DNA from: an uncultured virus (IMG/VR IMGVR_UViG_3300015608_001800)
Taxonomy: Duplodnaviria; Heunggongvirae; Uroviricota; Caudoviricetes
Reading direction: 5' to 3' (one strand)
Length of the DNA: 64,000 nucleotides
IMG/VR virus record: IMGVR_UViG_3300015608_001800
The translations under genes and the position numbers were made by a program. Position 1 is the stretch's first letter. Each line of letters starts with the position of its first letter. The notes under the pieces were generated by a model, which did no database searches, was not told the origin of the DNA, and worked only from the letters and a program-made list of their open reading frames with translations. Positions 1,078 to 47,400 of this stretch are shown here, piece after piece.

Positions 1078-2724
1078 TTAAGCTTGAGTTGCTTCTTCTA
1101 CCTTAGGTACTTCCACCTCTTTGGTTTCGATACTATCCCACGCGGAGATAATTTCGTTAGCGTAAAGGGCTTCCTTACCTGTCCATCCACCAAGAACAGC
1201 TCCTCTGTAGAGGTTTTCAGGTACAACAGAGTTGTTGTAGCCAGCTACTTGGACGGTGAAGACGTTAACCTTAGGGTTAACTTTTCTACGGTATTCTTGT
1301 ACCAACTTCAAAACGTCAATGTTACGGGTAGTACCGTGAACATACTCAGCATATTCCCTTGGGTTTACACCGTACAATCCACCGTGACCTGCTTGCATAT
1401 CACTGTAAATGAAGATTGTATCGTAGTGAGTCTTACTCTTGATAGCCTCGTTCAAGAAAATCCAAATACCGTTTTCAGTACCACCACCTTGAGCCTTACC
1501 TCTTTCACAAGTTTCCTTGAGTTGAGAGATAATACCGTCTCTTTTAGAAACAGGTTTTAAACTCAATCTATCACCGAATACACCAACATAACCTTCGTCA
1601 GAAGCTAATGCTGTGATGATGGAAGACAAGTTAGCGATTTCCGCTACGGCTGTCGTTCCGTATTCAGAGTTCATTTGACCCCAAGATGAACCAGAGTTGT
1701 CAGATAGACAAGCTACCTTACCCTTCAACTTAGGGAAGTTAGCCACAGAGATGTCAAGACACTCTTGTAAAGCGTCAAGAATCATTCCCTTGTGGTTAAT
1801 AGAAACCTTGTCGATTTCCTTGTATGCTGTGTAGTAACGGAATGGGAATTGCTTACCGTAAAGTACACCACCCTTAAGGTCTGTAAGAACCTTCTTAGCT
1901 GTTTCAACATCGTTGATTTCAGTGAAGATACCTCTCAAGTTTCTCAAAAGAGCCATGTGTGGAACCTTGATTGTGTCAAGAATTTCCTTCCATGTCTTAC
2001 CTTGAGACTTAAGGCTTTCCCATGTTTGTTCCGTTTCAGAAACAGCCACGTCACCCGTCTTCATCAACTCGTCAATAACTTCAGAGTGAGCGTGAGAGAT
2101 ACGAACCAAGTCAATTAATGACTTAGACTTGTACTTGTTGATTTGGTACCTGTTGAAGGTAGCCAACTTTTCAGCCCAAGCTCTCTTAACGATAGATGGT
2201 AAACCATTCTTAGAACCCTTCAAGAACATGTAGTAGTCGAATTGGTTCGTAATATCGTCAGGACGACCAACGATTTCCATACCAATCTTCTTCATCAAAC
2301 CTGGGTTTGCTTCGTTGAATTCAACCCTCTTTGGGTGTTGAGATGCTCTAACGAAAATAACCGCTGGGTTAAGTCTCATGAATAATTCATGACGTAATGT
2401 TCTAGCAAATTCAAGAGTAGCCTTGAAGTCGTAATCCAATGCTGCATCGATAGCCTTTGTGAAGACATCAGTTGTAGTTTCACTTGGATCAGTGTACACA
2501 CCAAGAACGTCATACTTACTCAAGTATGATAAGTTAGATGGTTTGTCGTGAGAACCTCTGTAATAAGATGGTTCACCGAAGATAGATGACGCTGCCACAA
2601 TACGTAATGTATCAAGTGGATTCAACGTGTAAGATGTTCCACCGTCAAAGTTTTGAACGGCCTTATCTTGGAAAGACTTGTGGTCTGCTGATGCTTTTGC
2701 TGAATGCTTACTGAATTTGCTCAT
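1078..2724 (-). CDS. Ro60/TROVE-domain RNA-binding protein with C-terminal vWA domain
   Basis: TROVE motifs (LIDLVRISH, MALLRNLR, QFPFRYYTAY) and vWA/MIDAS DNSGSS; likely start MSKFSKH at 2724 after GGAG. Confidence 0.9.
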   Translation of the reverse strand: MSKFSKHSAKASADHKSFQDKAVQNFDGGTSYTLNPLDTLRIVAASSIFGEPSYYRGSHDKPSNLSYLSKYDVLGVYTDPSETTTDVFTKAIDAALDYDFKATLEFARTLRHELFMRLNPAVIFVRASQHPKRVEFNEANPGLMKKIGMEIVGRPDDITNQFDYYMFLKGSKNGLPSIVKRAWAEKLATFNRYQINKYKSKSLIDLVRISHAHSEVIDELMKTGDVAVSETEQTWESLKSQGKTWKEILDTIKVPHMALLRNLRGIFTEINDVETAKKVLTDLKGGVLYGKQFPFRYYTAYKEIDKVSINHKGMILDALQECLDISVANFPKLKGKVACLSDNSGSSWGQMNSEYGTTAVAEIANLSSIITALASDEGYVGVFGDRLSLKPVSKRDGIISQLKETCERGKAQGGGTENGIWIFLNEAIKSKTHYDTIFIYSDMQAGHGGLYGVNPREYAEYVHGTTRNIDVLKLVQEYRRKVNPKVNVFTVQVAGYNNSVVPENLYRGAVLGGWTGKEALYANEIISAWDSIETKEVEVPKVEEATQA

Positions 2725-2754
2725 ATATTTCTCCTTTTTTTGTTTGTTATTAAA

Positions 2755-2790
2755 TAAAAAAGTCCCTACAATTTGACTCGTAGGGACTTT
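2755..2790 (-). terminator. Intrinsic terminator in TROVE leader
   Basis: AAAGTCCCTAC/GTAGGGACTTT stem followed by T-run on minus strand. Confidence 0.65.
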
Positions 2791-2870
2791 AGCCATAACA
2801 TCCTTAGTGGGGGGATTTATGGCCCAGGTCTCACTACCTCGACCTAAAAAATCAACGAGGTGTGGACAAT

Positions 2871-3115: not shown

Positions 3116-3262
3116 ATGGGAAGAAAAAAGAAATATATCACGGAAGAGGATAAATATGAAGCTCAAAAAAAATGGGCAATGGAATATTATTGGCGAAATA
3201 AAGAAACAATAAAAAAGAAAAATCTAAAAAAATATCATGAAAAGAAAAACTGGAATATATAA
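3116..3262 (+). CDS. Small basic protein (MGRKKKYITEEDKYEAQKKWAMEYYWRNKE...) upstream of GIY-YIG
   Basis: Read manually; follows ATATTTAT and overlaps start of GIY-YIG gene. Confidence 0.5.
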   Translation: MGRKKKYITEEDKYEAQKKWAMEYYWRNKETIKKKNLKKYHEKKNWNI

Positions 3263-3863
3263 AATTAAAAACTTAATTAACAATAAAGTTTATATTGGTA
3301 GTTCTGTTGACATTGATAAAAGGTGGAAACTTCATAAAGATAGTTTAATACAAAACAAACACCACTCCATATTATTACAGAGAAGTTTTAATAAACATGG
3401 AAAAGATAACTTTATTTATGATATTATTGAGGAATGTGAAAAAGAAATATTAATCGAACGAGAACAATATTGGATTGATACATTAGATTCATATAATAAC
3501 GGTTATAATATATTACCAAAGGCTGGTAGTTGTTTAGGCAATAAAGTTTCTGACGAAACTAAAAGAAAAATGAGTATCATTAAACTAGGTAGTAATAATC
3601 CTAATTATGGTAAAAATCATAGTTATGAAACTAAAAGAAAAATGAAAAATAAATTAGAGGGTGAAAATAATCCAGCTACTAATTTAACTAATAATGTTAT
3701 AAATGATATAAGAGATTTATACTTAAAAGGAAAAAAGATATCAGATTTAATTGAAATTTTTAATGTTAAAGAATTAACATTAAGACGTATAGTTAATAAC
3801 AAAACATGGAAAGATGAAAAATATAATATCTTATTAACTAAACACAAAAATAAAATATTTTAA
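3237..3863 (+). CDS. GIY-YIG homing endonuclease with NUMOD3 repeats
   Basis: GIYKIKN...VYIGSS, EREQYWID, HS.ETK.KM motifs. Confidence 0.9.
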   Translation: MKRKTGIYKIKNLINNKVYIGSSVDIDKRWKLHKDSLIQNKHHSILLQRSFNKHGKDNFIYDIIEECEKEILIEREQYWIDTLDSYNNGYNILPKAGSCLGNKVSDETKRKMSIIKLGSNNPNYGKNHSYETKRKMKNKLEGENNPATNLTNNVINDIRDLYLKGKKISDLIEIFNVKELTLRRIVNNKTWKDEKYNILLTKHKNKIF

Positions 3864-4194: not shown

Positions 4195-4227
4195 TACGCT
4201 TTTAAAACTTTTTTTTACTTTTTTTTG

Positions 4228-4256
4228 TAGTCCCGATAGGAATCGAACCTATATCG
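4228..4256 (-). pseudogene. 3' half of a split tRNA
   Basis: CGAT-ATAGG-TTCGATT-CCTAT-CGGGACT-A; acceptor strand pairs with 4741-4767. Confidence 0.75.
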
Positions 4257-4304
4257 GATAGATTTTTTAAATCTATCCATATATTTATCTAAAAACCACT
4301 AACA

Positions 4305-4706
4305 ATGAATACTAAAATTTGTCCTACTTGTCAAGAAGAAAAAGATATTAAAGATTTTTACCAAAAAAAAGACAGAAAAAAAGGCGCATCATCTTGTAAA
4401 ATATGTTTTAATAAATACTGTACTGAACGTTCAATACAGAAGAAAATAGATGCTATAATATATAAAGGTTCTAAATGTAATGATTGTGATATTTCATACC
4501 CAAAATACCCATACGTCATATTTGATTTCCACCACACCAACCCAACCAATAAAGATTTTGATTGGAGTAAAATGCGATTAATCTCTAAGGAAAGGATGTT
4601 ATCTGAATTAGATAAATGTGATTTACTTTGTTCTAATTGTCATAGAATAAGACATCATAAAGAATTAGTAGCCCCACAGGGAATCGAACCCCAATCGAAA
4701 GTTTAG
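4305..4706 (+). CDS. HNH endonuclease with Zn ribbons
   Basis: CxxC pairs, FDFHH...KCDLLCSNCHRIRH; stop lies antisense inside tRNA-Arg. Confidence 0.85.
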   Translation: MNTKICPTCQEEKDIKDFYQKKDRKKGASSCKICFNKYCTERSIQKKIDAIIYKGSKCNDCDISYPKYPYVIFDFHHTNPTNKDFDWSKMRLISKERMLSELDKCDLLCSNCHRIRHHKELVAPQGIEPQSKV

Positions 4707-4808: not shown

Positions 4809-4907
4809 TAGTCCTAGAGGGATTCGAACCTGTAAGAACTCTTTTTATTCTTCGCTCTAATTACTGTATTTCATTAGCCACGACTTTACCAATTCTGCCA
4901 CCTGACT
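4809..4907 (-). pseudogene. Chimeric/degenerate tRNA-like element
   Basis: AGTCAGGTGGCAGAATTGGTA...ACAGGTTCGAATCCCTCTAGGACTA; acceptor and T stems mismatched, no regular anticodon arm. Confidence 0.6.
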
Positions 4908-5547
4908 AAATACTTCTTCCTTTATACCAACCATCACAAATATAATCATTTATTTCTTCTTTTTTAATTTTTTTATTTTCTTTTCCATTTGTAATCCAAC
5001 AAGTACCATATGAAGGGTTTTTTTCACCTATATACATACCTTTTTTCACTTCACTCATCTTTTTTTTTGTTTCTTCACTGTGATTTTTACCTTCGAATGT
5101 GTTGTAATTTATTTTACCAAGTAAATGATTTTTTTTAAGATTATCTAATAATAATTTTTTTATTTTGTCACGATAATCACTATCTATTAACCATTTATTT
5201 TTTTGGTATTTTGAAGCACCAATTTTAAGATTTTTTCTATGTATATCATTTACAACACCCCCTTCACCACCTTTTTTAAGATTCATTGATAAAGAATCTT
5301 TTAACAACTCTTCATTAACTAATTCTTTCTCTCTTTCAATTAAAGATTTTCTATCAGAAAAAAATTCTAAAATTTCGAACTTAAAATTTTCTTTCCCATG
5401 TTTATTTAAAGAACGTCTTAATCTTTTCCCGCTACCCATGTAACCATCTTCAAGGTTATCCGTACTGTGCATCCCTATGTAATACTTATCATTTTTAAGA
5501 TTTGTGGTCTTATAAATGTAGTGATATTTTTTTTGTTTTCTGGCCAT
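4906..5547 (-). CDS. GIY-YIG (Seg-like) homing endonuclease
   Basis: YIYKTTN...YYIGMHST...GYMGSG, NUMOD3, C-terminal WITNG...GW.KGR. Confidence 0.9.
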   Translation of the reverse strand: MARKQKKYHYIYKTTNLKNDKYYIGMHSTDNLEDGYMGSGKRLRRSLNKHGKENFKFEILEFFSDRKSLIEREKELVNEELLKDSLSMNLKKGGEGGVVNDIHRKNLKIGASKYQKNKWLIDSDYRDKIKKLLLDNLKKNHLLGKINYNTFEGKNHSEETKKKMSEVKKGMYIGEKNPSYGTCWITNGKENKKIKKEEINDYICDGWYKGRSI

Positions 5548-5596: not shown

Positions 5597-5668
5597 TACT
5601 CCCAACGGGAATCGAACCCGTGTTTTAACCTTGAAAGGGTTACGTCCTTACCCCTAGACGATGGGAGC
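5597..5668 (-). tRNA. tRNA-Glu(UUC)
   Basis: GCTCCCA/TGGGAGT acceptor, TAACC-CTTTCAA-GGTTA anticodon arm, canonical T arm. Confidence 0.92.
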
Positions 5669-5697
5669 AAAAAAAAATCCGACTTTTAGGTCGGATT
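5669..5697 (-). terminator. Attenuator terminator immediately upstream of tRNA-Glu
   Basis: AATCCGAC-CTAAAA-GTCGGATT then T-run ending at tRNA nucleotide 1. Confidence 0.8.
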
Positions 5698-5720
5698 CTT
5701 ATATTATCTTTCAGTAATTA

Positions 5721-5792
5721 TTAGACAATAGTTAGACATCCAACCTCTCGATTAGCTTCCTCTCTTCTCTCTATTCTAATTACTGTGTTCAT
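5721..5792 (-). CDS. Putative leader peptide MNTVIRIERREEANREVGCLTIV
   Basis: Read manually; AGA/GAG/GAA-rich run; lies between promoter motifs (5814-5833) and terminator. Confidence 0.7.
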   Translation of the reverse strand: MNTVIRIERREEANREVGCLTIV

Positions 5793-5813
5793 TGTGTTAA
5801 TTTTGTGTTTGTT

Positions 5814-5833
5814 ATAAATATGATACAAAGGTA
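5814..5833 (-). promoter_or_regulatory. Tandem TACCTTTG and ATATTTAT promoter motifs for tRNA leader
   Basis: TACCTTTG at 5826-5833, ATATTTAT at 5814-5821. Confidence 0.6.
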
Positions 5834-8091: not shown

Positions 8092-8715
8092 ATGACCAAA
8101 GAAGAAAGAAAAGAATATAATAAAAAATATAGAGAGAAAAATAAAGATTTAAAAAAACAATCTGATAGGGAGTATTATGAAAAAAATATTAATTCAATTA
8201 GGGAGTATCAGAAAAAATGGAGAGAGAATAATCAACAATACATTAAGGAGTATAAGAAAAAGTGGGGTAAAGAGAATTACTTAAAAAATAAAGAAAAAAG
8301 AAAAGAATATTATAAACTTTGGTATGAAAGAAATAAAGACAATAGTGAATATAAATCTAAAATTCAAAAAACCAATAAAAAATGTCGTTCTAAAAAACCA
8401 CATTTAACAGCATGGAGAAATGTGTTAAAAAATTCTTTAATAAGATTAAAAAATAATAAAATTGATACTACAGTTACTTTATTAAAATATTCCGCTCTTC
8501 AATTAAAACAAAGGGTTGAATGTCAATTTAAAGAAGGTATGTCATGGGAGAATTATGGTGAATGGCATATTGACCATAAAAAACCAATTTCTAGATTTAA
8601 CCCAAAAACACCAATACATATTGTAAATGCATTAAGTAATTTACAACCATTATGGGCTAAAGATAATTTAAGTAAGAAAAATAGTTTCAAAAGTGTATCA
8701 GATAATACTGACTGA
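8092..8715 (+). CDS. HNH homing endonuclease
   Basis: GMSWENYGEWHIDHKKP...NLQPLWAKDNLSK. Confidence 0.88.
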   Translation: MTKEERKEYNKKYREKNKDLKKQSDREYYEKNINSIREYQKKWRENNQQYIKEYKKKWGKENYLKNKEKRKEYYKLWYERNKDNSEYKSKIQKTNKKCRSKKPHLTAWRNVLKNSLIRLKNNKIDTTVTLLKYSALQLKQRVECQFKEGMSWENYGEWHIDHKKPISRFNPKTPIHIVNALSNLQPLWAKDNLSKKNSFKSVSDNTD

Positions 8716-9334
8716 AAATAGAAAAAAGGTCAAAGTTCTCCACGAATATAGTAGAGAATACGATGTTAATTATAGGTTTGAAAAACTAAAATCTCAAGAG
8801 GCATTCTTCCCTAAAACTAAAGTCTATAAGGATAAAAAACTTGTAGATGTTAATTACGAAATTCTTTTACTAAAAAAGAGAGAGGAGGGTGATCAAAATC
8901 GTATTGTTAAGAATGAATTAGGTAAATTCGTAGAGGAAACCATTAACGACCCTGATTGGGTTATTATGGATGTTGGTCCTTATCTCATTGAAGAGAATTT
9001 CAGTGTAAGTGGTGCTAACCGTAAATTAACAGCTAAAGAAATAATCGAATACATTGTAACATCTAAAGCTCAAAAGAAAAACCCAAAACAAATCTTAATG
9101 TTAAACAACAAGATAGTAATTGAGGGTTTAGAATTATATTTGGTGACTTGTAAAGATGTTGAAGAAACTATACGACTTTATAATAAAATAAGAGTGTATT
9201 GTTTTGATAAAGGTATTACTGACATTATATTCTTTGGTTCAATACCGAAAGAAAACCGTAAAACATGGTATAAAAAGATACATGAAAGAACTGGTATTGG
9301 TTATAACCGTCTTTATCGTTCTAATTCAAGGTAG
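8693..9334 (+). CDS. Hypothetical phage protein
   Basis: 213-aa ORF; GTG start overlapping HNH stop. Confidence 0.65.
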   Translation: MYQIILTENRKKVKVLHEYSREYDVNYRFEKLKSQEAFFPKTKVYKDKKLVDVNYEILLLKKREEGDQNRIVKNELGKFVEETINDPDWVIMDVGPYLIEENFSVSGANRKLTAKEIIEYIVTSKAQKKNPKQILMLNNKIVIEGLELYLVTCKDVEETIRLYNKIRVYCFDKGITDIIFFGSIPKENRKTWYKKIHERTGIGYNRLYRSNSR

Positions 9335-9967: not shown

Positions 9968-10558
9968 TTAAGATTGAAGGATATTCTTTAGAAATGATTT
10001 ACGGTGCCACTTGGTAGTTCCGATTTCTTTTATCTTCTCTATGTGTTCAGCCGAACCATAACCTTTATTACCGTCCCATTTATAATCAGGATATGTTAAA
10101 TGAAGTTCTTTCATGAAATCATCCCTCATTACTTTAGCTACTATAGAAGCTGCAGCAATAGAATAATAGGTGTTATCACCCTTTATTACACAATCGTGTT
10201 TTATGTCTTTATAAGGAAGAAAATAGTTACCATCGACTAGAATGTGATTAAACTCACCATCTAGATTAGATAAACACTCATGCATACCCTTCATTGTTGC
10301 CTGAAGGATGTTTAAATCGTCTACTTCTTGTGGTGAGGTGAAAGTAACAGTCCATTTAATTGCCTTCTCCTTAATTAATTCAAAAGCTTCTTTTCTTTTT
10401 TTCTCGGACAGTTTTTTAGAATCTTTTACTATTGGTGATTCAAAGTCTTTAGGTAATATAACAGCGGCAGTAACAACAGGTCCAGCTAAACAACCACGAC
10501 CTACTTCATCTAATGCCGCAATCGGATTTTTCGATATTTCGATATCACTTTTTAACAT
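9968..10558 (-). CDS. rnhB: Ribonuclease HII
   Basis: DEVGRGCLAGPV, DSKKL, KGD..YYSIAAASIVAKV.RD, NKGYG; likely start MLKSD at 10558. Confidence 0.93.
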   Translation of the reverse strand: MLKSDIEISKNPIAALDEVGRGCLAGPVVTAAVILPKDFESPIVKDSKKLSEKKRKEAFELIKEKAIKWTVTFTSPQEVDDLNILQATMKGMHECLSNLDGEFNHILVDGNYFLPYKDIKHDCVIKGDNTYYSIAAASIVAKVMRDDFMKELHLTYPDYKWDGNKGYGSAEHIEKIKEIGTTKWHRKSFLKNILQS

Positions 10559-11240
10559 ATTCCCATTTATATCCATAAGCTGTTCTACCTTTACCATTAC
10601 AAACTCTAGTAATGGTTGATCTATCATATTTTAATTCATTTTCAATTTGGGAAAGTGATTCCCATTTTTTTACAAAATCACCATTTAAGGTTTTTTGTAT
10701 GACTTCTCTACGTTTTTTTTGAAGTAATCTAAATTTATCTTTAACTTCTTTTGTTGAATATTTTTCTTTTAAAGTTTTAGAAATTTTATCCCTAACCTCT
10801 TTATCTTTAGTTGGATGATTAGTTGAATTTCTTAGTGATAAATCAGGTCTTTTCTTCCCCTTCATAGGGTTGATAAAACCGTTTCTATAACTCTCTTTTT
10901 TAATTAAAGATAACTTATGTTTAATATACTCATTCATATTCGAAGCGTCACCACCATCAGTGGTATTGGTTAGATTAAAACCTAAGTCTTTAAAATATTT
11001 TATCCAAAATATTTCTCTATCCAATGCCTCAACTTCCGTATCTACCGATTCCAACTCTTCAATTATTGGTTTTATATTTTCCTTCAATAAAGATTTAATC
11101 CAATTAGATTTATGTGTAAATTCAACACCCCTATTAGATTTACTTATATGACCATTTAATCTAGTTTTTAAACTATTTTTAGTTATACCAACATACTTAA
11201 TAATGTTTTTATTATCTTTCAATACATATATTTTATACAT
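10545..11240 (-). CDS. GIY-YIG homing endonuclease with NUMOD1
   Basis: IYVLKD...YVGIT...RL..H, LTN.T.GGD, TAYGYKWEY. Confidence 0.88.
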   Translation of the reverse strand: MYKIYVLKDNKNIIKYVGITKNSLKTRLNGHISKSNRGVEFTHKSNWIKSLLKENIKPIIEELESVDTEVEALDREIFWIKYFKDLGFNLTNTTDGGDASNMNEYIKHKLSLIKKESYRNGFINPMKGKKRPDLSLRNSTNHPTKDKEVRDKISKTLKEKYSTKEVKDKFRLLQKKRREVIQKTLNGDFVKKWESLSQIENELKYDRSTITRVCNGKGRTAYGYKWEYVKK

Positions 11241-11586: not shown

Positions 11587-11771
11587 TTTGAAAACATTCT
11601 TTTAAATTTACCCCAAAATCCTAATTTCTTTTGTACTTTATTGGGTTCTTTTAGTATTTCTTCCCCCAAACCGTCGACAATTTCACGGATGAAGTTTTCT
11701 TTCTTGATTTCGGTCGCAACGGTGTCTTGTAACATTTTACGTTCTTCATCCTTAATTAAATTCCTACTCAT
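11583..11771 (-). CDS. Hypothetical protein
   Basis: Coupled ORF. Confidence 0.55.
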   Translation of the reverse strand: MSRNLIKDEERKMLQDTVATEIKKENFIREIVDGLGEEILKEPNKVQKKLGFWGKFKRMFSK

Positions 11772-12214
11772 TTCAATAATTTATTAAAACCTTTTTTTAA
11801 ACTCTCTCTCAAATTTAATAAAGGTTTAACCATATCTAAAGACTTTAAAAACCCAGGATGTAATGGTGAAGGTAAATTATCTACACTAAACCACCCATAT
11901 TTATCGTTTTCATCTGTTTTTAAATTAGGTACTTTAAATTCCCTATCAACAAATCCTACCATAACATAATGTGGATGTCCCATAGCGTGAGAAATTCCCA
12001 CTATCTTAATATCCTTAACCATGTCGGGATTGAGTCCTATTTCTTCCCCAATCTCTCTTTTAACTGTTTCAATTGGATCCTCACCATCTTCCATACCACC
12101 AGCTAAAGCTGACCAAGTACCTGACGGATAATTAACTCTATGTAACATTAAAATTTTATTAGTATCCCTTGCTACGATTAGTATACCTACTGACTGATAT
12201 TTTTTCTTTTCCAT
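11768..12214 (-). CDS. Nudix hydrolase
   Basis: Nudix box GGMEDGEDPIETVKREIGEEIG. Confidence 0.9.
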   Translation of the reverse strand: MEKKKYQSVGILIVARDTNKILMLHRVNYPSGTWSALAGGMEDGEDPIETVKREIGEEIGLNPDMVKDIKIVGISHAMGHPHYVMVGFVDREFKVPNLKTDENDKYGWFSVDNLPSPLHPGFLKSLDMVKPLLNLRESLKKGFNKLLK

Positions 12215-12666: not shown

Positions 12667-13203
12667 ATGACAAAAAGAAAGATTTCCGTTTTTGATTTTG
12701 ATGGTACTCTTTTGGATACCCCAATCGGATCACCAGAAAATAAAGAAACATGGGCAAAAAAATACGGTAAACCATGGCCATATCTTGGTTGGTGGGGTAG
12801 GGATGAATCCTTAGATACAACTGTTTGGGATATGAAACCTATCGATGAGGTTTATAAAGCTTGGGTTAAAGAGTCAGAAAATCCTGAGACTGTAACTGTA
12901 TTACTAACAGGTCGTTTAATTAAACAAAGTCATTTGGTTAAAGGTATTACAGACTCAATTGGGTACCGTTTTGACCATTATTTGTTCAACACTAAGGGTG
13001 GAACATTACAAAATAAGATTAACCATCTAAACCATTTATTATCACAATATCCTGATGTTCGTGAAGTTGAATTATGGGATGATCGCATAGAGCATGCTGA
13101 TAGTTTTAAAAAATGGGGTGAGACGTTAAAAGAAAATAAACGTATAGATAAATTTTATCTTAACGAAATAAAATCTGATCAGTGGGAAAATTTTATTGAA
13201 TGA
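12667..13203 (+). CDS. HAD-family phosphatase (Swiss-Army-Knife RNA-repair-like)
   Basis: FDFDGTL, LLTGR, WDDR motifs. Confidence 0.75.
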   Translation: MTKRKISVFDFDGTLLDTPIGSPENKETWAKKYGKPWPYLGWWGRDESLDTTVWDMKPIDEVYKAWVKESENPETVTVLLTGRLIKQSHLVKGITDSIGYRFDHYLFNTKGGTLQNKINHLNHLLSQYPDVREVELWDDRIEHADSFKKWGETLKENKRIDKFYLNEIKSDQWENFIE

Positions 13204-26047: not shown

Positions 26048-26872
26048 TTATTTGTAGATGAACTCAAATAAGTCCTTACTTTTATTTCTCAACTTACGTA
26101 GAGCCTTTTCCTTGATTTGACGGATACGTTCCTTTGTCAAATCGTAGTCCTCACCGATTTCTTCGAGAGTTAATGGAGTCCCATTCAAGCCGAAGTAAAG
26201 TTCGATGATTTGTCTTTCTCTTGGAGAAAGAACAGACAATGTGTTCTCTAATTGAGTTTTTAACATGTCTTTAGGTTTTTCAAAAGACTCGTCTGGTCTC
26301 TCGAAAGAGTCGTCAGCGATGATATCCATCATTTCATCACCATCTTCATTAATGGTTTCATTCAATGAAGTACAAGATGGTTGGATAAGTAATGTCAAAT
26401 CCATATCAACATCAGTAGGTTTTCTACCATGTTCTTGTTCGAAAGCTGAAATCTCTCTCTTTAACTTAGCAATGTTGTTTGTAACATTAACTGGAAGACG
26501 TACAGTTCTAGCGTTATCATTCAAAGATTGGATGATAGATTGTTTAACCCACCAAACAGCGTAAGAGATAAATCTGAAACCACGTTCAGGGTCAAATTTT
26601 TGTGCAGCTTTAATCAAACCGAAGTTACCTTCGTTAATTAAATCAGCCAACGGTAAACCTTGATTCTGATATTCCTTTGCTATAGAAATAACGAATCTTA
26701 GGTTAGCAGTAACTAACTTTTCGGTAGCGGCTTTGTCACCCTCACGAACTTTCTTTGCTAATTCAACTTCTTGTTCAGGAGTTAACATATCAATTTTTCT
26801 AACATCTTTAAGATATCTTGAAATGCTTTCCTCTGACGTATTGATGAATCTTTTTATGTTTACTGTACTCAT
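26048..26872 (-). CDS. RNA polymerase sigma-70 factor, RpoD/SigA family (short Bacteroidetes type)
   Basis: ANLRFVISIAK, DLINEGN.GL, FISYAVWW, TLEEIG...LTKERIRQI. Confidence 0.92.
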   Translation of the reverse strand: MSTVNIKRFINTSEESISRYLKDVRKIDMLTPEQEVELAKKVREGDKAATEKLVTANLRFVISIAKEYQNQGLPLADLINEGNFGLIKAAQKFDPERGFRFISYAVWWVKQSIIQSLNDNARTVRLPVNVTNNIAKLKREISAFEQEHGRKPTDVDMDLTLLIQPSCTSLNETINEDGDEMMDIIADDSFERPDESFEKPKDMLKTQLENTLSVLSPRERQIIELYFGLNGTPLTLEEIGEDYDLTKERIRQIKEKALRKLRNKSKDLFEFIYK

Positions 26873-26882
26873 ATTATAACTT

Positions 26883-27260
26883 TTATTTTTTATTTCCGAA
26901 AATTAAACTACTATTTTTTGTAACCTTTGTTTTTGATACTTCCTGAACCTTACTTATACGTTCTTTCTTTGGTTTAGGTTTCTCATTTTTAATCTTTTCT
27001 TCTATTTCTCTCTTTTTAATTAAATAGAAGTCACCATTCATTTTGTAAGGTAAATCTCTAACATTTGCCCAAAGAGATAAAATATAGTTACTTTTATTGG
27101 GTCTATCAACGCCCCCCTCTAATTTATTTATCTGTTCAACAAGTTGGTTAGCCATTTCCCTAATACCGGGTGTTATTAGAGCTTCAGGTACTTCAGTTTC
27201 GTACCATTCAACCCTCTTACCTTTTCTTAAAATCTTTTCATATTCACTATAACTTAACAT
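26883..27260 (-). CDS. Hypothetical protein
   Basis: Coupled ORF. Confidence 0.6.
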   Translation of the reverse strand: MLSYSEYEKILRKGKRVEWYETEVPEALITPGIREMANQLVEQINKLEGGVDRPNKSNYILSLWANVRDLPYKMNGDFYLIKKREIEEKIKNEKPKPKKERISKVQEVSKTKVTKNSSLIFGNKK

Positions 27261-27892
27261 TAATAACTATAATTTTTTGTCGGCTTACGGAACTTCATTT
27301 GTGAATCCGTATTATTCTTTTCGGACAAACCATTCTTTAATTTGGCTGACCTTTTTTTAAGTACCCACCCTTCATACATATCTGTTTGGGTAATTTTATC
27401 CCATAATGATTCAAAATTTTGGGTAAAAGTGTTAACAATGTAAACGTTATCATTAATTTTATTTATAAATCCATCATATTCAGTAGACGGAAATAACTCA
27501 TTCAAAAGTTGTATACGTTGATTGAATGTCATTCCTATTGTTTGAACCCCGTCATATACCAACACATCAAAGATAACTAATTTATGGTTAAAAACCTCAC
27601 CTTTTGAATTATTTTTTGATTTATTCATGTATTCACCATTAAGCACAAACCATCCTTTCCCCTTATGTAAGGAAAGAAATTCAGATTCTTTCATTTTAAC
27701 GTTTGTGATTGGTGAATTATGACGGTTATAAAGATGAACCTCTTCACCGTTTGTGAAAATTACAATGTTGGATCCATTAAGTTTTGGTTGTCCTACCCAC
27801 TCACCATTATCATACTTACTCAACTCAGAAGAAGGTAAGTTAATCTCAGGTCTTGGGGGAAATATGTACCGATACTTGTTATAAGGAATCAT
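27260..27892 (-). CDS. ATP-dependent ligase-like nucleotidyltransferase (adenylation domain only)
   Basis: QPKLNG, LNGE, IFDVL, EGWVLK, QMKFRK. Confidence 0.7.
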   Translation of the reverse strand: MIPYNKYRYIFPPRPEINLPSSELSKYDNGEWVGQPKLNGSNIVIFTNGEEVHLYNRHNSPITNVKMKESEFLSLHKGKGWFVLNGEYMNKSKNNSKGEVFNHKLVIFDVLVYDGVQTIGMTFNQRIQLLNELFPSTEYDGFINKINDNVYIVNTFTQNFESLWDKITQTDMYEGWVLKKRSAKLKNGLSEKNNTDSQMKFRKPTKNYSY

Positions 27893-35451: not shown

Positions 35452-36282
35452 ATGAAATGGTCAAAAGACAAAATCGATATTATTAAAGATAACTATCCTA
35501 AATTTGGTAGTAAATACTGTTCTGAATTATTAGGTGTGAGTATTAGTTCCATCCAAAATATGGCCTATAAATTAAACTTATCTATTAACAAAAATGTTAA
35601 ATCTAATATTTTAAGTAAATCTAAAAATTCTACAAATATAGATTTTGATAATTTCATTCAATTAAATAAGCCAGAAATTGTTTATTTTTTGGGTCTATTT
35701 TGGGCTGATGGGTATATGTTTCAATCAAAAAATGGTTATAACAGTAACATAGGTATAGGATTAGTTAAAGAAGATATGGAAGAGTTAGAAATTCATCTAG
35801 ATAAAATAGGTGTGTGGAATAAAAGAATTAGTGATAAGAAAAATGTTTCATCATGGCGTCAAACAAAATCTTTATTAACCAACAATAAAAGAATATATAA
35901 CTTCTTAACGGAAATGGATTTTAAAGAAAAATCTTATAAGTCAGCCGATAAAATATTAAATATAATACCTAAAGAACTAAGACATTATTTTTTTAGAGGG
36001 TTAATAGATGGTGATGGTTGTTTTTATATTAGTAAAAATAAAAAACAAAAACAATTTACGATATCTAGTTCTATTGGGCAGGATTGGGAATATGTAATAA
36101 AATTATTTAATAATTTAAATATCTTAAAATATAGTATTAATAAAAATACTGGATCAAACATTAGAGTTGTGAATAAAATTGATATTATAAAATTAGGTGA
36201 TTATATCTATCAAAATTATGAAAAAGATAAAATAGGACTATCAAGAAAATATGAAAAATATCTAATGATTAAAAATGGTTAA
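35452..36282 (+). CDS. LAGLIDADG homing endonuclease
   Basis: YFLGLFWADG and FFRGLIDGDG. Confidence 0.9.
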   Translation: MKWSKDKIDIIKDNYPKFGSKYCSELLGVSISSIQNMAYKLNLSINKNVKSNILSKSKNSTNIDFDNFIQLNKPEIVYFLGLFWADGYMFQSKNGYNSNIGIGLVKEDMEELEIHLDKIGVWNKRISDKKNVSSWRQTKSLLTNNKRIYNFLTEMDFKEKSYKSADKILNIIPKELRHYFFRGLIDGDGCFYISKNKKQKQFTISSSIGQDWEYVIKLFNNLNILKYSINKNTGSNIRVVNKIDIIKLGDYIYQNYEKDKIGLSRKYEKYLMIKNG

Positions 36283-36613: not shown

Positions 36614-37054
36614 TTATAATTTATGTTTTTTCATAAATTTTATCGGTTCAATAGGACCGTTAACTGGATCAACATAGTTATCATTCCTAAATCTAGGTCC
36701 AACCATTTCACTATATACACTAAGTAATTCGGCATGGTTGAACCCACCGATGTTATCACCATTCCACCAAGTTTTAAATTCATCTAAAACTCTTAGGGGA
36801 TTAACACCACCGTGAAAAATGTAACTATTGTCTTGCCAATTATTTTCACTCTCAACACATATCCTACGTAATAGTGGGAATATTAGTACTTCTATTTGAC
36901 CATAATCACGTTGATAATTTGGTTGGTCCTGAATAGTAAGTAGATGTCTAGCTAAAATCTCAAGTTTTAAAGCCATACGTGTTTTATGAAAATCACTTAG
37001 TTTATCTAAAAGACCAGTTACCTCCCAATTACCCACTAATAAATTTAAATCCAT
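36614..37054 (-). CDS. Small protein resembling the N-terminal segment of gp23-type major capsid protein
   Basis: W..TGLL..L...K..MA..LE and FPLLRRI. Confidence 0.55.
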   Translation of the reverse strand: MDLNLLVGNWEVTGLLDKLSDFHKTRMALKLEILARHLLTIQDQPNYQRDYGQIEVLIFPLLRRICVESENNWQDNSYIFHGGVNPLRVLDEFKTWWNGDNIGGFNHAELLSVYSEMVGPRFRNDNYVDPVNGPIEPIKFMKKHKL

Positions 37055-38001
37055 TATACTTTTTGTTTAATATTATCTAACCTCTTATGAGCCCATCTTT
37101 CCTTCCAATGGTTGACCAAAGTGTCAACACTTAAATCATATGGTTTAAGTTCTTTATCGACACCCTTTAAGAACTCGGATGTATTCTCACCTCTATCACA
37201 CCAATAAATCCCTCTACGATTACCGTGAGTTGTTAAGGTTCTAGCGTCGATTCCTAAATAATCACTTGCTTTCCTAATGATATTAATTCTTGAATTTTTA
37301 CCACTAGTAAATTGACCACCAGGTATTTCACCCTCCTCCTCTTCCACAACCAACCTCATCTGTTGATAAAGTCCTTCATCAATCTGAACAGTTCCCTGTC
37401 CTTGGGTTAAACCAAGATATTTGAAATGTTTAAGTCGGTTATATTGTACCCCTCTACCGTATAAAGAAGTTACTGTTAAACCAGCCAATTCATCATTATA
37501 TTTTCCCTTCCAATGGTTAGCTACAACATCAGAAGCGGCCAATAATGTTAATAATTTACCCCCACACATATTATAACCAAAATGTCTTGTTGGTACGCAA
37601 ACTGAAATGTTTGCGATATTACGATTCCTTAAAACCCTATCATTTTTATCCCAACCAATATGTCTATCTCTAGGTCCTAGAGCTAAAAAATCAGCAGCTA
37701 TATCCAAAATACCTAAATTCTTTTCATCGTAAGCATTCTTAACTAAGAAATAATTGTTACGACCTGGACTTCGTCTAAACGGAAAAGAAGATACGTGTTC
37801 TTCAATACTTTTCCATTCTCTCCATAATTTACTTGTAGAATCAACAGGTATTAAAATCGGTTGAATGTTGTTTGGGTCTTCAACCACACTCTCACCAATC
37901 CATATAGGATCATACTTTTTAACCTGTCTATCTTTCTGTTCTTCTTGACTTAAAAACTTAAAGTTTAACAAGTCGTGTTTAAGTTGTTCTCTATTTACCA
38001 T
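37054..38001 (-). CDS. DUF4338/DruA-like protein
   Basis: PGR...FLV, LGPRDRHIGW, FGYNMCGGKLL.LLA.S, TSLYG...QYNRL. Confidence 0.7.
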   Translation of the reverse strand: MVNREQLKHDLLNFKFLSQEEQKDRQVKKYDPIWIGESVVEDPNNIQPILIPVDSTSKLWREWKSIEEHVSSFPFRRSPGRNNYFLVKNAYDEKNLGILDIAADFLALGPRDRHIGWDKNDRVLRNRNIANISVCVPTRHFGYNMCGGKLLTLLAASDVVANHWKGKYNDELAGLTVTSLYGRGVQYNRLKHFKYLGLTQGQGTVQIDEGLYQQMRLVVEEEEGEIPGGQFTSGKNSRINIIRKASDYLGIDARTLTTHGNRRGIYWCDRGENTSEFLKGVDKELKPYDLSVDTLVNHWKERWAHKRLDNIKQKV

Positions 38002-39550: not shown

Positions 39551-40267
39551 ATGAGAAAAGGTAATACGACTTCTTTTATAGAAAAATCTAAAAAAATACA
39601 CGGTAATAAATATGATTACTCTAAAGTTAACTACTTAAGTTATTACGAAAAAGTAGATATTATTTGCTATAAACACGGGTTGTTTAAACAAAGAGTCTGT
39701 GATCACATCAAAGGCCAAAATTGTCCTGAATGTAGTAAATTAGAAATGATTAATAAATTATCACATAATAATGAAATTTTTATAAATAAAGCTAAAAAAA
39801 TACATGGTGATAACTATGATTACACATTGGTTGATTATAAAAATGCTTATACACATGTACTAATAAAATGTAAATTACATGGTGAATTCAAACAAAAACC
39901 CTCAAACCATTTAAACAACAAACAGGGTTGCCCATATTGTAACACACCTAAAATGGAAAAATTTGTCGAGTATTTTTTAAAAACAAATAATATACCTTAT
40001 ATACAACAAAAAACATTCAATGGTTGTAAATATAAAAGAAAATTAAAATTCGATTTTTACTTACCAAATCACAATACTTGTATTGAATGTGACGGTGAAC
40101 AGCATTATAGAATTAGAGATTTTAATGGTGGTTTAGAAGGTTTTAAGTATACACAAATACGTGATGATATTAAAAATAATTATTGTTTAACACATGATAT
40201 TAAATTAATTAGAATTAAATACAATGAAAATATAGTGGATAGACTAAAACCTATTTTAACTACCTAA
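39551..40267 (+). CDS. Vsr/DUF559-like PD-(D/E)xK homing endonuclease with Zn-ribbon repeats
   Basis: HG.KYDYS.V.Y repeats, FDFYLP...IECDGEQHY...D..KN.YC...LIRI.Y. Confidence 0.85.
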   Translation: MRKGNTTSFIEKSKKIHGNKYDYSKVNYLSYYEKVDIICYKHGLFKQRVCDHIKGQNCPECSKLEMINKLSHNNEIFINKAKKIHGDNYDYTLVDYKNAYTHVLIKCKLHGEFKQKPSNHLNNKQGCPYCNTPKMEKFVEYFLKTNNIPYIQQKTFNGCKYKRKLKFDFYLPNHNTCIECDGEQHYRIRDFNGGLEGFKYTQIRDDIKNNYCLTHDIKLIRIKYNENIVDRLKPILTT

Positions 40268-41408
40268 TCATATCTATATTTTTATTATTTATCGTATCTA
40301 AGGTATAAATTTCTAATTCAGTCTTTAACCTATTTTCACGTTTTAATGTTAAAAATCTTTGATTTGCCTTATTCTTCCACCAATCAATCATATGAGTTAA
40401 ATGGTATCTATCCCAATTATCTCTCTTAACTAAAGGAACTTTACCATCACTAGCAATATATTGTGGTACGTTATCATAACCGTAGTTACAATAATAGTAT
40501 CTCTTTTTAGTTTTAGCCTTCATATGGGTCTTAGTGAATTCACTAAATTCTTTAAACTTCAAAGGGTTTTGTACCTTTAAATGGTTTTTAAGGATAGAAA
40601 CCATTTTATTGAATTCTCTCATTTTAGGACCAGAAGGACCTGGGTCTACCATAGAGCCACCCCATTCAGGTTTACCATAATGTGGTCTTAAGGCATCTCT
40701 AACAGCCATAAAAACATCATCATTAGGGAATAAGAATAAATCAGATTCAGTCATACTACCATATCTCATAAACGGTTTAAGACCGTCATATTGACTCACA
40801 CCTTTAATATCACCATAAAGTGAGGTTGTCTCCATAAAGACAGTATCAATACGGTCACCGTATTTATCTTTTAACATTTGACGTGCCTCATGTGAACAAC
40901 ATATTAAAGCTAACAATTTACCACCCAAGTAGTTATACCCAAATGGTTGAACGGGAACGATAATCGCTCCATTAATCATGTATTTATTAACTTCGTTTGC
41001 TGTAATTTTTAAACCTTGGAATAGGTCGTTACGGGGTTTAATTGATAAAACGGGTGAAGCTAGACGAATAAAACCAACATATTTGTTAGTTGTTGTTTCT
41101 TTAACCCCAATCATAATTTGTCTACCAATTTGGGATTCTAAGGGTAGGGATGTAATAATTTGTGTTGCTGGATTGAATAATTTACCCTCAATAATTTCAA
41201 TCTCAAACTTCATATCCTTTGGTTCAACACCATAGTCATCGAACATTAGTTTAGTGTATTTATCGTGGTCAACACCCACTACTTTTTCTTTCTTTCTTTC
41301 AAGGAAATAATCCTGAATTGTGTCTAATCCTTCATAAAAACCCATCAACCTATTTGTTAAATCAAGGGTTTCTTCGGGTGTTAATTTTGTATCGAAAACT
41401 TCTGCCAT
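40260..41408 (-). CDS. DUF4338/DruA-like protein (second paralogue)
   Basis: IVPVQPFGYNYLGGKLLALICCSH, ETTSLYG, SQYDGLKP; start MAEVF. Confidence 0.7.
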   Translation of the reverse strand: MAEVFDTKLTPEETLDLTNRLMGFYEGLDTIQDYFLERKKEKVVGVDHDKYTKLMFDDYGVEPKDMKFEIEIIEGKLFNPATQIITSLPLESQIGRQIMIGVKETTTNKYVGFIRLASPVLSIKPRNDLFQGLKITANEVNKYMINGAIIVPVQPFGYNYLGGKLLALICCSHEARQMLKDKYGDRIDTVFMETTSLYGDIKGVSQYDGLKPFMRYGSMTESDLFLFPNDDVFMAVRDALRPHYGKPEWGGSMVDPGPSGPKMREFNKMVSILKNHLKVQNPLKFKEFSEFTKTHMKAKTKKRYYYCNYGYDNVPQYIASDGKVPLVKRDNWDRYHLTHMIDWWKNKANQRFLTLKRENRLKTELEIYTLDTINNKNIDMIR

Positions 41409-41409
41409 T

Positions 41410-41440
41410 TTTGCCAATTTAAATATTATTATTATCTTTG
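41410..41440 (+). promoter_or_regulatory. Bacteroidetes primary-sigma promoter
   Basis: TTTG-N19-TATCTTTG. Confidence 0.7.
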
Positions 41441-41470
41441 TAATGTTAATCAAAAAAGGTCAATCAGTAA

Positions 41471-45987: not shown

Positions 45988-46627
45988 ATTTCCAATAACC
46001 TTCTTTTCTCATAAACCCTAGAACAGCTGTATAAGCGTCGGTCATATCAAAATTTTCCTTTTTAAGAAGATTGTGTTTGTTATATTCCCAAACAATTTGT
46101 GGTTCACGGTCTGCAACTAAATCCCAAATGATTTGTTTCTTATCAACATCCCAAGGGTGTCCACCAAATAAAACAGGTTTCTTCTTACTTAATTCTTTTT
46201 CGTTGTAAGGTACACCTTTTTTATCGTGAGTTCTGATTGCCATTAATTGTGGGAAAGCATAAGCACGAGAATCATATGAAGATATGAATTCTGGTGTTAC
46301 ACCTAAAACCTCACTAACGATTTTTGAAATCATCCCGTTGAATTTAAGAAGTGTTCCAACGGTATAAACATTATTACTATTGAGTAGTGGTTCTTCAATT
46401 ACAACTTTCTCAATATCGAGTTCGATGTATCTTGTTAAAAGCTTCTCAAATGCATCAACTTTCTTAAAAAGTTCTTCCAATTTGTTCTCAGGTAATGGTT
46501 TAATTTTTGGTGTAATATGTGTTAATTCCAATAATTTACCATCTTCTTCAAACAGTGCCATACCAATCGTTTTGGTACTCACATCAAGTCCCATAATACG
46601 GCTTTTTATTTTTTCTTCTTTTTCCAT
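45986..46627 (-). CDS. RuvC-like Holliday junction resolvase
   Basis: GLDVSTKTIG, VIEEP, DMTDA. Confidence 0.75.
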   Translation of the reverse strand: MEKEEKIKSRIMGLDVSTKTIGMALFEEDGKLLELTHITPKIKPLPENKLEELFKKVDAFEKLLTRYIELDIEKVVIEEPLLNSNNVYTVGTLLKFNGMISKIVSEVLGVTPEFISSYDSRAYAFPQLMAIRTHDKKGVPYNEKELSKKKPVLFGGHPWDVDKKQIIWDLVADREPQIVWEYNKHNLLKKENFDMTDAYTAVLGFMRKEGYWK

Positions 46628-47400
46628 ACGTAACCTCTCAAAGGTGTATTATTTTTAATTGCTTTATTTAGTGTATTATAAGAAACATCTAAAAATTCTG
46701 TAGCTTTTTTAATTGACTCCCACTCCTTTATTAAAACACTGTTTTGATATTGGAGTACCTTTTTTTGTAAAGATTTTGATCTTTTTTCAATAGATTCTTT
46801 AGAAAAAACTTGTAGTTTCCTTTTTTCTCTAATTTTTTTCTTAGATTCATCACTATGTTTTTTGCCGGTTATCCAAGTTTTTTGGCCTTTATGTGATTTA
46901 CTCAGTTTTAATTTATATTCATCACTAAAAGTCTTACCTTTATTGGGTGATGTTCTACCTTTTAATGATTTAGATAAATTTTTTCTATGTTTTTCCGTTC
47001 TCTTTTTATCATTATTTAACCACGGTATTGGTTTACCTTTCTTTGATTCTGACATTTTTCTCTTACTTTCTTCTCTATGTTTACTACCTTTAGTGGAAGG
47101 GGGTTGGTCACCACCATTTGTACAGTTGGTTAAATTACATCCAATAAATTTAAAATAAGAAATATAATAGGATTCCCAAAATTGCCATTCTTTTTCTAAA
47201 ACTTCATCAATAATAATTAGTTCTGGTCTAACATTATTTTCTTTTAACTTTCTTATCCACCTATCTTTATATGAATCATATAGATTTCTATCGGCAATAT
47301 GTCTACGTAATCTCGATTTTGGGTTTAAACTTTTACCTATATACCGTACTTGGCTAGTGATTGGATCAATTAAGCCGTAGATATAAACATTTCTTTCCAT
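46606..47400 (-). CDS. GIY-YIG homing endonuclease with NUMOD3 repeats
   Basis: YIYGLIDP...RYIGKS..P..RL..H, LTN.T.GG. Confidence 0.9.
   Translation of the reverse strand: MERNVYIYGLIDPITSQVRYIGKSLNPKSRLRRHIADRNLYDSYKDRWIRKLKENNVRPELIIIDEVLEKEWQFWESYYISYFKFIGCNLTNCTNGGDQPPSTKGSKHREESKRKMSESKKGKPIPWLNNDKKRTEKHRKNLSKSLKGRTSPNKGKTFSDEYKLKLSKSHKGQKTWITGKKHSDESKKKIREKRKLQVFSKESIEKRSKSLQKKVLQYQNSVLIKEWESIKKATEFLDVSYNTLNKAIKNNTPLRGYVWKKKKK

Follow-up and report, generated by a model that had tools for sequence, protein, structure and literature searches.

A stretch of 64,000 nucleotides (nt) from an uncultured virus of the class Caudoviricetes (IMG/VR record IMGVR_UViG_3300015608_001800; hereafter the window, to whose full length all coordinates refer) carries a short leader unit directly ahead of genes for transfer RNAs (tRNAs) for Glu and Arg, and the unit and the tRNAs that it would regulate all lie on the minus strand. 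We propose, with a probability of roughly 0.78, that this unit is a ribosome-mediated leader-peptide transcription attenuator, which controls the tRNA-Glu/tRNA-Arg array and thereby feeds back on tRNA supply. The same mechanism had been put forward in a preliminary description of the sequence, and it is now supported by covariation between leader codons and tRNA arrays, by covariation of the antiterminator and by folds of the nascent transcript. We favor it on computed evidence, which covers how the unit is built and conserved, how its alternative pairing covaries, which reading frame is kept, and how codons match arrays in four leader classes. The decisive evidence is that homologous leaders located before other arrays carry the codons of each array's own tRNAs.

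Anatomy of the leader unit and proposed mechanism

The unit opens with a promoter at 5855-5826 (minus strand), composed of a -33 element TTG(ACA) at 5855-5850, a 19-nt spacer and a -7 box, TACCTTTG, at 5833-5826. As this box fits TAnnTTTG, the flavobacterial sigma-A -7 consensus at -12 to -5 (PMC9723704), the promoter was assigned to the flavobacterial sigma-A type, and from the position of the box relative to that consensus, transcription is predicted to start at about 5821. The leader open reading frame (ORF; 5792-5721, minus strand) begins 29 nt after the predicted start, behind an A-rich interval, and runs for 23 codons from the ATG at 5792 to a TAA stop at 5723-5721, encoding the peptide MNTVIRIERREEANREVGCLTIV; start, frame and stop were verified. 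Codons 6-12 (5777-5757, minus strand) constitute the regulatory run, AGA ATA GAG AGA AGA GAG GAA, where six of the seven codons are AGA, GAG or GAA, the codons read by tRNA-Arg(UCU) and tRNA-Glu(UUC). GCT AAT CGA GAG follow as codons 13-16, and the recount agrees that 8 of the 11 codons 6-16 specify Arg or Glu. In the codon usage of the phage, AGA makes up 67% of Arg codons and GAA 76% of Glu codons, and the tRNA array would therefore serve the main codons of the phage.

Downstream of the ORF lies a predicted intrinsic terminator (5700-5669, minus strand), with its 5' arm at 5700-5690, a 6-nt loop at 5689-5684 and its 3' arm at 5683-5673. The 11 pairs of this hairpin (5700-5673), four of which are G-C, are followed by a run of nine U residues that reaches 5669. 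The first regulated gene, tRNA-Glu(UUC) (5668-5595, minus strand; called by ARAGORN, 64.9 bits with the Rfam tRNA model), begins at the very next base, in keeping with the preliminary description. tRNA-Arg(UCU) (4740-4668, minus strand; ARAGORN, 61.7 bits with Rfam) is the second regulated gene. In the minimum-free-energy fold, a leader hairpin (5785-5712, minus strand) sequesters segment 3 when no ribosome is present, and in an apical hairpin within the leader CUAAUC (5754-5749) pairs with GGUUGG (5745-5740). Segment 3 (5746-5738, minus strand; AGGUUGGAU) is the 5' strand of the antiterminator, and its complementarity to AUCCGACCU (5696-5688) in the terminator 5' arm proved to be exact.

According to the proposed mechanism, transcription would start at the 5855-5826 promoter, and a ribosome would load on the 23-codon leader while the polymerase proceeds. 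Fast decoding by tRNA-Glu(UUC) and tRNA-Arg(UCU) would let the ribosome clear codons 6-12; once past the run, it would cover segment 3 or allow it to refold into the leader hairpin, so that the terminator 5' arm would stay free, the terminator would form, and transcription would stop at the U-run just before tRNA-Glu. A ribosome stalled in the run would hold the leader hairpin open and leave segment 3 exposed, and the pairing of segment 3 with 5696-5688 would preclude the terminator, such that the polymerase would read into the tRNA genes. Since the tRNA product would relieve the stall, the circuit would amount to negative feedback on decoding capacity for the array's own codons. We infer from the sequence that the leader ORF is translated and that the terminator both functions and is bypassed, while transcription and translation are presumably coupled in the host.

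Leader codons follow the identity of the downstream tRNAs

Eight further leader-array pairs, two in the distant relative L013 (also designated L081) and six in the related jumbo-phage contigs G003, G005 and G006, were compared with the Glu/Arg leaders. All eight leaders consist of a short ORF and a terminator behind a promoter of the same type, and each carries a different run that matches its own array at the codon level. One leader of L013 (L013-2, MKNWQNISINHSNRISS...) lies ahead of His, Asn, Ile(GAU), Ser(GCU) and Arg(ACG) tRNAs, and its core, ATT AAC CAT AGT AAC CGA ATT AGT, consists of eight consecutive codons that are each read by one of the five tRNAs; NISINHSNRISS exemplifies a codon run before His, Asn, Ile, Ser and Arg tRNAs. 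The other leader of this locus (L013-1, MKNLTNILPFMPTVEFQLKI...) precedes Gln, Phe, Met, Thr, Val, Leu, Glu, Leu, Pro, Ile(UAU) and Lys tRNAs, with all 11 array tRNAs represented within codons 2-20. Likewise, NNIHISNRNQWYQPCFINN in G005-1 is found before Ile, Asn, Tyr, Trp, Phe, Pro, Gln, Ser, Ile, Arg and Cys tRNAs, and G003 has four units that share a single promoter sequence but each have a run of their own. AAC ATA at codons 6-7 is common to most leaders, so that they form one family with exchangeable runs.

The match was evaluated under strict wobble rules over the best 12-codon window, with an expectation taken from phage codon usage and a simulated P. It exceeded expectation in 12/12 pairs, with P ranging from 0.019 to <5e-5: three pairs gave 0.019, 0.007 and 0.005, and the other nine <=2e-4. 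The matrix of leaders against arrays is block-diagonal with four leader classes, and the Glu/Arg leader heads Glu/Arg-only arrays in every informative relative. Covariation of leader codons with downstream tRNA identity, which the preliminary description had named as a check of its proposal, is therefore borne out in related phages. A search for more relatives of the L013-type array by way of its 69-amino-acid neighbour protein returned L013 itself only.

Two further elements were seen in these arrays. In the L013 contig, ARAGORN calls a suppressor tRNA with the anticodon UUA (L081 4158-4235), which could indicate TAA reassignment there. In addition, a conserved GGAGAG...CTCTCC element between the class II terminator and tRNA-His (L081 ~8630-8718, L083 ~5322-5413) resembles a long-arm tRNA with a UGA-type anticodon loop and is uncalled by ARAGORN and Rfam; if it were tRNA-Ser(UGA), the TCG codons in those leaders would be accounted for.

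Conservation of the Glu/Arg unit and its reading frame

Relatives of the unit were fetched via the neighbouring 407-amino-acid gene and an alignment of its homologues, giving 28 loci from viral sequences and 50 from metagenomes. When searched with an nhmmer profile of the unit, 33/80 fetched loci and the window matched at E <= 1e-7; these represent 23 distinct leader sequences or loci, 21 of them with downstream sequence. The next gene after the terminator is tRNA-Glu in 18/21 variants; in 2/21 (L002 and L011 types) tRNA-Glu is second, after an HNH endonuclease ORF, and in 1/21 (L057) a truncated tRNA-Glu-like sequence is found. The downstream arrays consist of Glu(UUC/CUC) and Arg(UCU/CCU) tRNAs only, in up to six copies that are often divergent (Glu x4 and Arg x2 in L066, Glu x3 and Arg x3 in L032), except for one tRNA-Asn in L007/L008. 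The TTGAC-N-TAnnTTTG promoter motif is kept in 11/11 relatives examined and is also present in more distant leaders. A search of the phage GenBank collection found no relative of the leader, as the tRNA-Glu part alone matched other phages.

The upstream 407-amino-acid gene (minus strand) ends at 5852, and the possibility that the unit is merely the 3' end of this gene was considered and rejected, as the unit moves with tRNA-Glu where another gene intervenes. In L005 and L009, a 2-kilobase gene parts the unit from the upstream gene while the unit still adjoins tRNA-Glu, indicating that it is tied to tRNA-Glu and not to the gene upstream. The distance from the U-run to the tRNA is 0-19 nt in clades A, L032, D, E and F, too short for a promoter to fit, and the array would thus be transcribed only through the terminator in those clades. 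As a separate observation, the HNH ORF of L002 and L011 sits exactly between terminator and tRNA-Glu, with its junction in the terminator loop.

Loss of the leader ORF had been named beforehand as a result that would speak against the proposal. In 18/18 analysed variants the ATG is retained and opens a frame of 20-29 codons that includes the Arg/Glu run, and the other two frames have 1-5 stops in each variant (55 and 28 in total over the 18 variants). A purine tract gives Arg/Glu-like residues in any frame, and for this reason all three frames of 14 distinct tracts were compared: the ratio of Arg/Glu to Lys/Gly codons is 79:4 in the ORF frame and 58:18 and 41:39 out of frame. The notion that the Arg/Glu richness is a by-product of the purine tract was rejected on the basis of this comparison and of the leader classes that have no such tract. 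Moreover, the changes in the 5' arm of the leader hairpin of L041 are Val/Ile swaps that are uncompensated in the 3' arm, which fits a coding constraint.

The same features bear on a ribosome-independent riboregulator, in which the GA-rich tract or the hairpins would bind tRNA in a T-box-like manner, or a protein, and so set termination. The many GAA, GAG and AGA triplets of the purine tract could indeed pair with anticodons, and the two similar hairpins could be protein sites. However, decoding is indicated by conservation of the ATG, by the open frame and by the triplet phase that the tract shows, and the other classes keep the architecture without a purine tract while using up to 11 codon types, which one specifier loop could not read. 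Besides, at E <= 1 the leader gave no match to the Rfam families Trp_leader, His_leader, Thr_leader, Leu_leader, T-box or Y RNA, nor any other convincing one; weak, sub-threshold matches to AgrB (33 bits against a cut-off of 40), STnc240 and SpF36 were judged to be due to chance. We therefore consider a regulator of this kind highly improbable.

Terminator, antiterminator and predicted switch

The 132-nt leader folds with -34.6 kcal/mol, compared with -18.5 +/- 2.9 kcal/mol for shuffled sequences (z -5.5, 0/200 as good). Within the leader, no segment pairs better with the terminator 5' arm than segment 3, at -9.7 kcal/mol versus -4.8 +/- 1.3 kcal/mol when shuffled, an energy that 0.3% of 300 shuffles match, and the same leader segment is the best partner in 11/12 variants. 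On an alignment of 18 sequences the terminator served as positive control for the covariation test of the antiterminator; its conservation involves compensatory changes, 93% of its cells being paired, and 0/500 shuffles reach its covariation score. The antiterminator has 77% of cells paired versus <=46% when slid, and 12 double-change cells versus 6.0 +/- 2.2 in shuffles, with 1/500 shuffles as high. Its covariation score is 0.230, a value that 16/500 shuffles attain. Individual variants illustrate the co-variation: leader and terminator both have GUUCGGAU in L066 and both have AAUCGGAU in L080, and in L041/L036 the terminator differs yet still fits GGUUGGGU. The mutually exclusive antiterminator that had been proposed is thus a conserved pairing which covaries with the terminator 5' arm.

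The nascent transcript was folded as RNA cut at the terminator loop, before the 3' arm, with an assumed ribosome footprint from -15 to +14 nt of the A-site codon. Without a ribosome, the terminator arm is free in 13/18 variants, and in the window 0/11 arm nucleotides are paired upstream. Any A-site position between codon 1 and the last codon of the run makes the arm pair with segment 3 in 17/18 variants, and in 14/17 parsed variants release of the arm falls no more than one codon from the last Arg/Glu codon. Among the eight further leader-array pairs, six show a switch of the nascent transcript that flips at the end of the run or up to 5 codons earlier.

RNA data were available for four metatranscriptome runs, covering 4-5% of sampled words as Logan contigs only, a format that holds no transcript, end, strand or level information. 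Long contigs from a ~92%-identical relative, and one 161-nt contig, span tRNA-Glu, the terminator and part of the leader, and could also stem from DNA carry-over.

Observations that weigh against the attenuator

Several findings count against attenuation by ribosome position or limit the variants to which it would apply. Full-length equilibrium folds retain the terminator under every ribosome mask, and any switch would therefore have to be co-transcriptional or kinetic, as we assume here in line with known attenuators. Folding with and without a ribosome mask, which the preliminary description had named as a check, gives a switch on nascent transcripts and none on full-length ones. In addition, the antiterminator is weak in some variants (shuffle fraction 0.26 in L007, 0.13 in L015 and 0.09 in L034), and the nascent-fold switch is unclear in two of the further pairs, G003-4 and G005-1. 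L080 and leader classes I and III form the antiterminator in ribosome-free folds as well, meaning that the logic is not uniform.

The behaviour of classes I and III would also suit an attenuator that reports general translation status, namely the presence of any ribosome behind the polymerase, instead of the supply of particular tRNAs. The same applies to the finding that, in the nascent folds, every ribosome position between codon 1 and the run leads to one and the same antiterminated state, and bacterial upstream ORFs that sense general ribosome stalling are known (PMC12121999). Nevertheless, a general sensor would need no array-matched run, whereas CGA is observed with Arg(ACG), AGT with Ser(GCU) and ATA with Ile(UAU), and the in-frame avoidance of Lys and Gly codons argues for specificity as well. 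On balance, a purely general sensor appears quite improbable to us.

At the locus level, clade A shows no base change at all in the 3' half of the leader hairpin, the part downstream of the stop codon included, which points to an RNA-level constraint that is not explained by the leader peptide alone. Furthermore, clade C (L005, L007, L009 and L034) and L015 possess a good TTTG-N20-TAnnTTTG promoter between terminator and tRNA-Glu, which would bypass the attenuator and makes the case weaker for these relatives. Both features would be compatible with a stand-alone small RNA or a 23-amino-acid micropeptide gene that heads the tRNA cluster, with the tRNAs arising from leaky read-through or from other promoters; so would the unit's own promoter and strong terminator, as well as the action in trans of terminated attenuator RNAs and leader peptides in Sinorhizobium (PMC7968998 and PMC7298713). 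However, a stand-alone gene leaves unexplained both the codon-array matching in all pairs of the four classes and the covariation of a leader segment with the terminator 5' arm, and most clades offer no promoter space between terminator and tRNA. We hold this explanation to be unlikely, while a trans function could exist in addition to attenuation. The second promoter of clade C and L015 starts inside the tail of the U-run, and does so in these relatives only.

Two further points against the attenuator concern the arrays. AGG is unused in the leaders before Arg(CCU) arrays and is present in L060 and L058, whose arrays are without Arg(CCU); finer codon covariation inside the Glu/Arg class, of AGG with Arg(CCU) and of GAG with Glu(CUC), was looked for and not seen. 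Leaderless arrays also exist in related phages, namely in L045 (tRNA-Glu), L053 (tRNA-Arg), L086 (a Leu/Glu/Arg block) and G004.

Promoter and host-type signals

The preliminary description had placed promoter motifs at 5814-5833. Motifs are present there, but this span takes in the -7 box only, and the conserved promoter extends over 5855-5826. The pattern TTG-N17-21-TAnnTTTG occurs 18 times in the window versus 8.8 +/- 2.9 times in shuffles, with several occurrences just upstream of genes, while a sigma-70 promoter scan of the window showed no enrichment (18 sites versus 21 +/- 4.6 expected). This unenriched scan has a match at 4807-4779, before tRNA-Arg. Its top match, at 5800-5773, falls within the leader and was set aside.

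Shine-Dalgarno sequences were found in 0/32 window genes inspected, and Bacteroidetes mRNAs are described as lacking them in PMC6847099. Hence, the missing Shine-Dalgarno sequence before the leader is no evidence against its translation. The host is probably a member of the Bacteroidota.

Comparison with known regulatory systems

Leader-peptide attenuators are well known from trpL, hisL, leuL and pheL of Escherichia coli and Salmonella, and multivalent ones from the thrL and ilv leaders. Like the phage unit, they have a promoter-proximal ORF with regulatory codons, a terminator and an alternative pairing; in them the position of the ribosome decides between the outcomes, as it would in the phage. 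A general account of such attenuators is given in PMC1183508. The multi-amino-acid runs of the other phage leader classes resemble the multivalent thr and ilv leaders. In contrast to the attenuators of amino-acid operons, the phage unit would regulate tRNAs, so that the sensed molecule would be the product and the autoregulation direct. It differs further in having neither sequence nor Rfam kinship with them, in its Bacteroidota-type setting without Shine-Dalgarno sequences, and in the reuse of one scaffold with exchangeable runs within a single genome, as in the four units of G003.

The pheST attenuator, with its pheM leader, and T-box riboswitches control aminoacyl-tRNA synthetase genes by reading tRNA charging. 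As the phage unit would do, they sense the state of a specific tRNA and gate genes of the translation apparatus through premature termination, whereas the genes controlled encode synthetases instead of tRNAs, and the T-box binds tRNA without a ribosome. Exchanges from T-box to leader-peptide control are discussed in PMC2965389.

The nearest functional analogue found is the trn operon of Anabaena PCC 7120, a stress-inducible tRNA array under the ribbon-helix-helix repressor TrcR (PMC10272220). There, as would be the case for the phage array, accessory tRNAs are kept off and are induced under translational stress; the Anabaena repressor acts at the promoter, whereas the phage unit employs a codon-matched leader ORF and a terminator. 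In agreement with the preliminary description, which knew of no described case for phage tRNA genes, searches of the open full-text literature found no leader-peptide control of tRNA genes, with subscription-only papers outside this coverage.

Bacterial tRNA genes are usually described as being set by growth-rate and stringent control at their promoters. If the attenuator reading is true, the phage unit would add codon-specific, direct feedback on tRNA supply, a classical mechanism reused for a new class of genes, and would account for the dosing of tRNA arrays by large phages. It would also provide a rule that can be searched genome-wide, namely that leader codons equal array anticodons, as well as a natural sensor of decoding capacity for individual codons. 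Moreover, the question of why phages carry particular tRNAs would become testable, with codon supply on one side and the replacement of tRNAs destroyed by host defences on the other.

A possible role in counter-defence

Phage tRNAs have been proposed to replace host tRNAs cleaved by defence nucleases. The arrays considered here likewise encode tRNAs with U-rich anticodons, while no attenuator is known for such replacement tRNAs. A broader picture, which we put forward tentatively and regard as somewhat unlikely, is that of a programmable sensor family, in which one scaffold with exchangeable runs would induce each array separately when its own codons are decoded slowly, and in which the Glu/Arg unit would be an inducible counter-defence that senses when anticodon nucleases or collateral RNases of the Cas13 type cleave host tRNA-Glu and tRNA-Arg, and answers with replacement tRNAs. 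This picture draws on the many divergent tRNA-Glu and tRNA-Arg copies and on RNA-repair-type neighbours. As a lead only, target-activated Cas13a cleaves tRNA-Glu(UUC), among others, in E. coli, according to PMC11042736. Depletion of the tRNAs could be due to poor host supply, host shut-off or cleavage by defence nucleases; the earlier suggestion of host anticodon nucleases as the trigger is speculation, and simple autoregulation of tRNA supply accounts for the data equally well.

Genomic surroundings of the array

In the window, a GIY-YIG homing endonuclease ORF (5547-4906, minus strand; Pfam GIY-YIG and NUMOD3) lies within the tRNA array, and a tRNA 5' fragment comprising acceptor and D arm (4766-4741, minus strand) directly abuts tRNA-Arg. 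L033 has an uninterrupted array, with the GIY-YIG ORF missing at the corresponding place, and the nearest record, G001, is a 72-kilobase fragment carrying the same two tRNAs. After the GIY-YIG gene follows a tRNA-like element with an expanded anticodon region (~4810-4905, minus strand), and similar expanded elements are Rfam-only tRNA matches in L083 (2641-2740 and 3186-3260). Compared with the intact array of L033, the array of the window looks rearranged by homing endonucleases. The 12-nt leader sequence ACAGTAATTAGA recurs at 4867-4856, which is not significant, as 21/100 shuffles give two matches.

The window as a whole is phage-like, with homing endonucleases, a sigma-70-family protein, amidases, a primase, a ligase, and TROVE/Ro and RNA-repair-type domains. 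A gene for a TROVE/Ro60-like protein (1078-2796, minus strand; Pfam TROVE, E 2.9e-10) is located downstream of the tRNA cluster, and an odd 'tRNA-Phe(AAA)' at 4227-4297 (minus strand), called by ARAGORN and unconfirmed by Rfam, might be a tRNA-like or Y-RNA-like Ro partner. A further group of Pfam-matched ORFs (12667-13203, plus strand; 27260-27892, 11768-12214, 26048-26872, 37054-38001 and 40260-41453, minus strand) includes a 'Swiss Army Knife' RNA repair HAD domain, an ATP-dependent ligase/RNA-ligase-like protein, a NUDIX protein, a sigma-70-family factor and two DruA-like proteins. Judged by their domains, the RNA-repair-type genes would fit a phage that contends with RNA damage. ORFs of the homing-endonuclease type are dense in the window, at 3237-3863, 4305-4706 and 35452-36282 on the plus strand and at 4906-5547, 10545-11240 and 46606-47400 on the minus strand; they are of the GIY-YIG, NUMOD3 and LAGLIDADG types, and the ORF at 4305-4706 has an HNH-like motif without a Pfam match.

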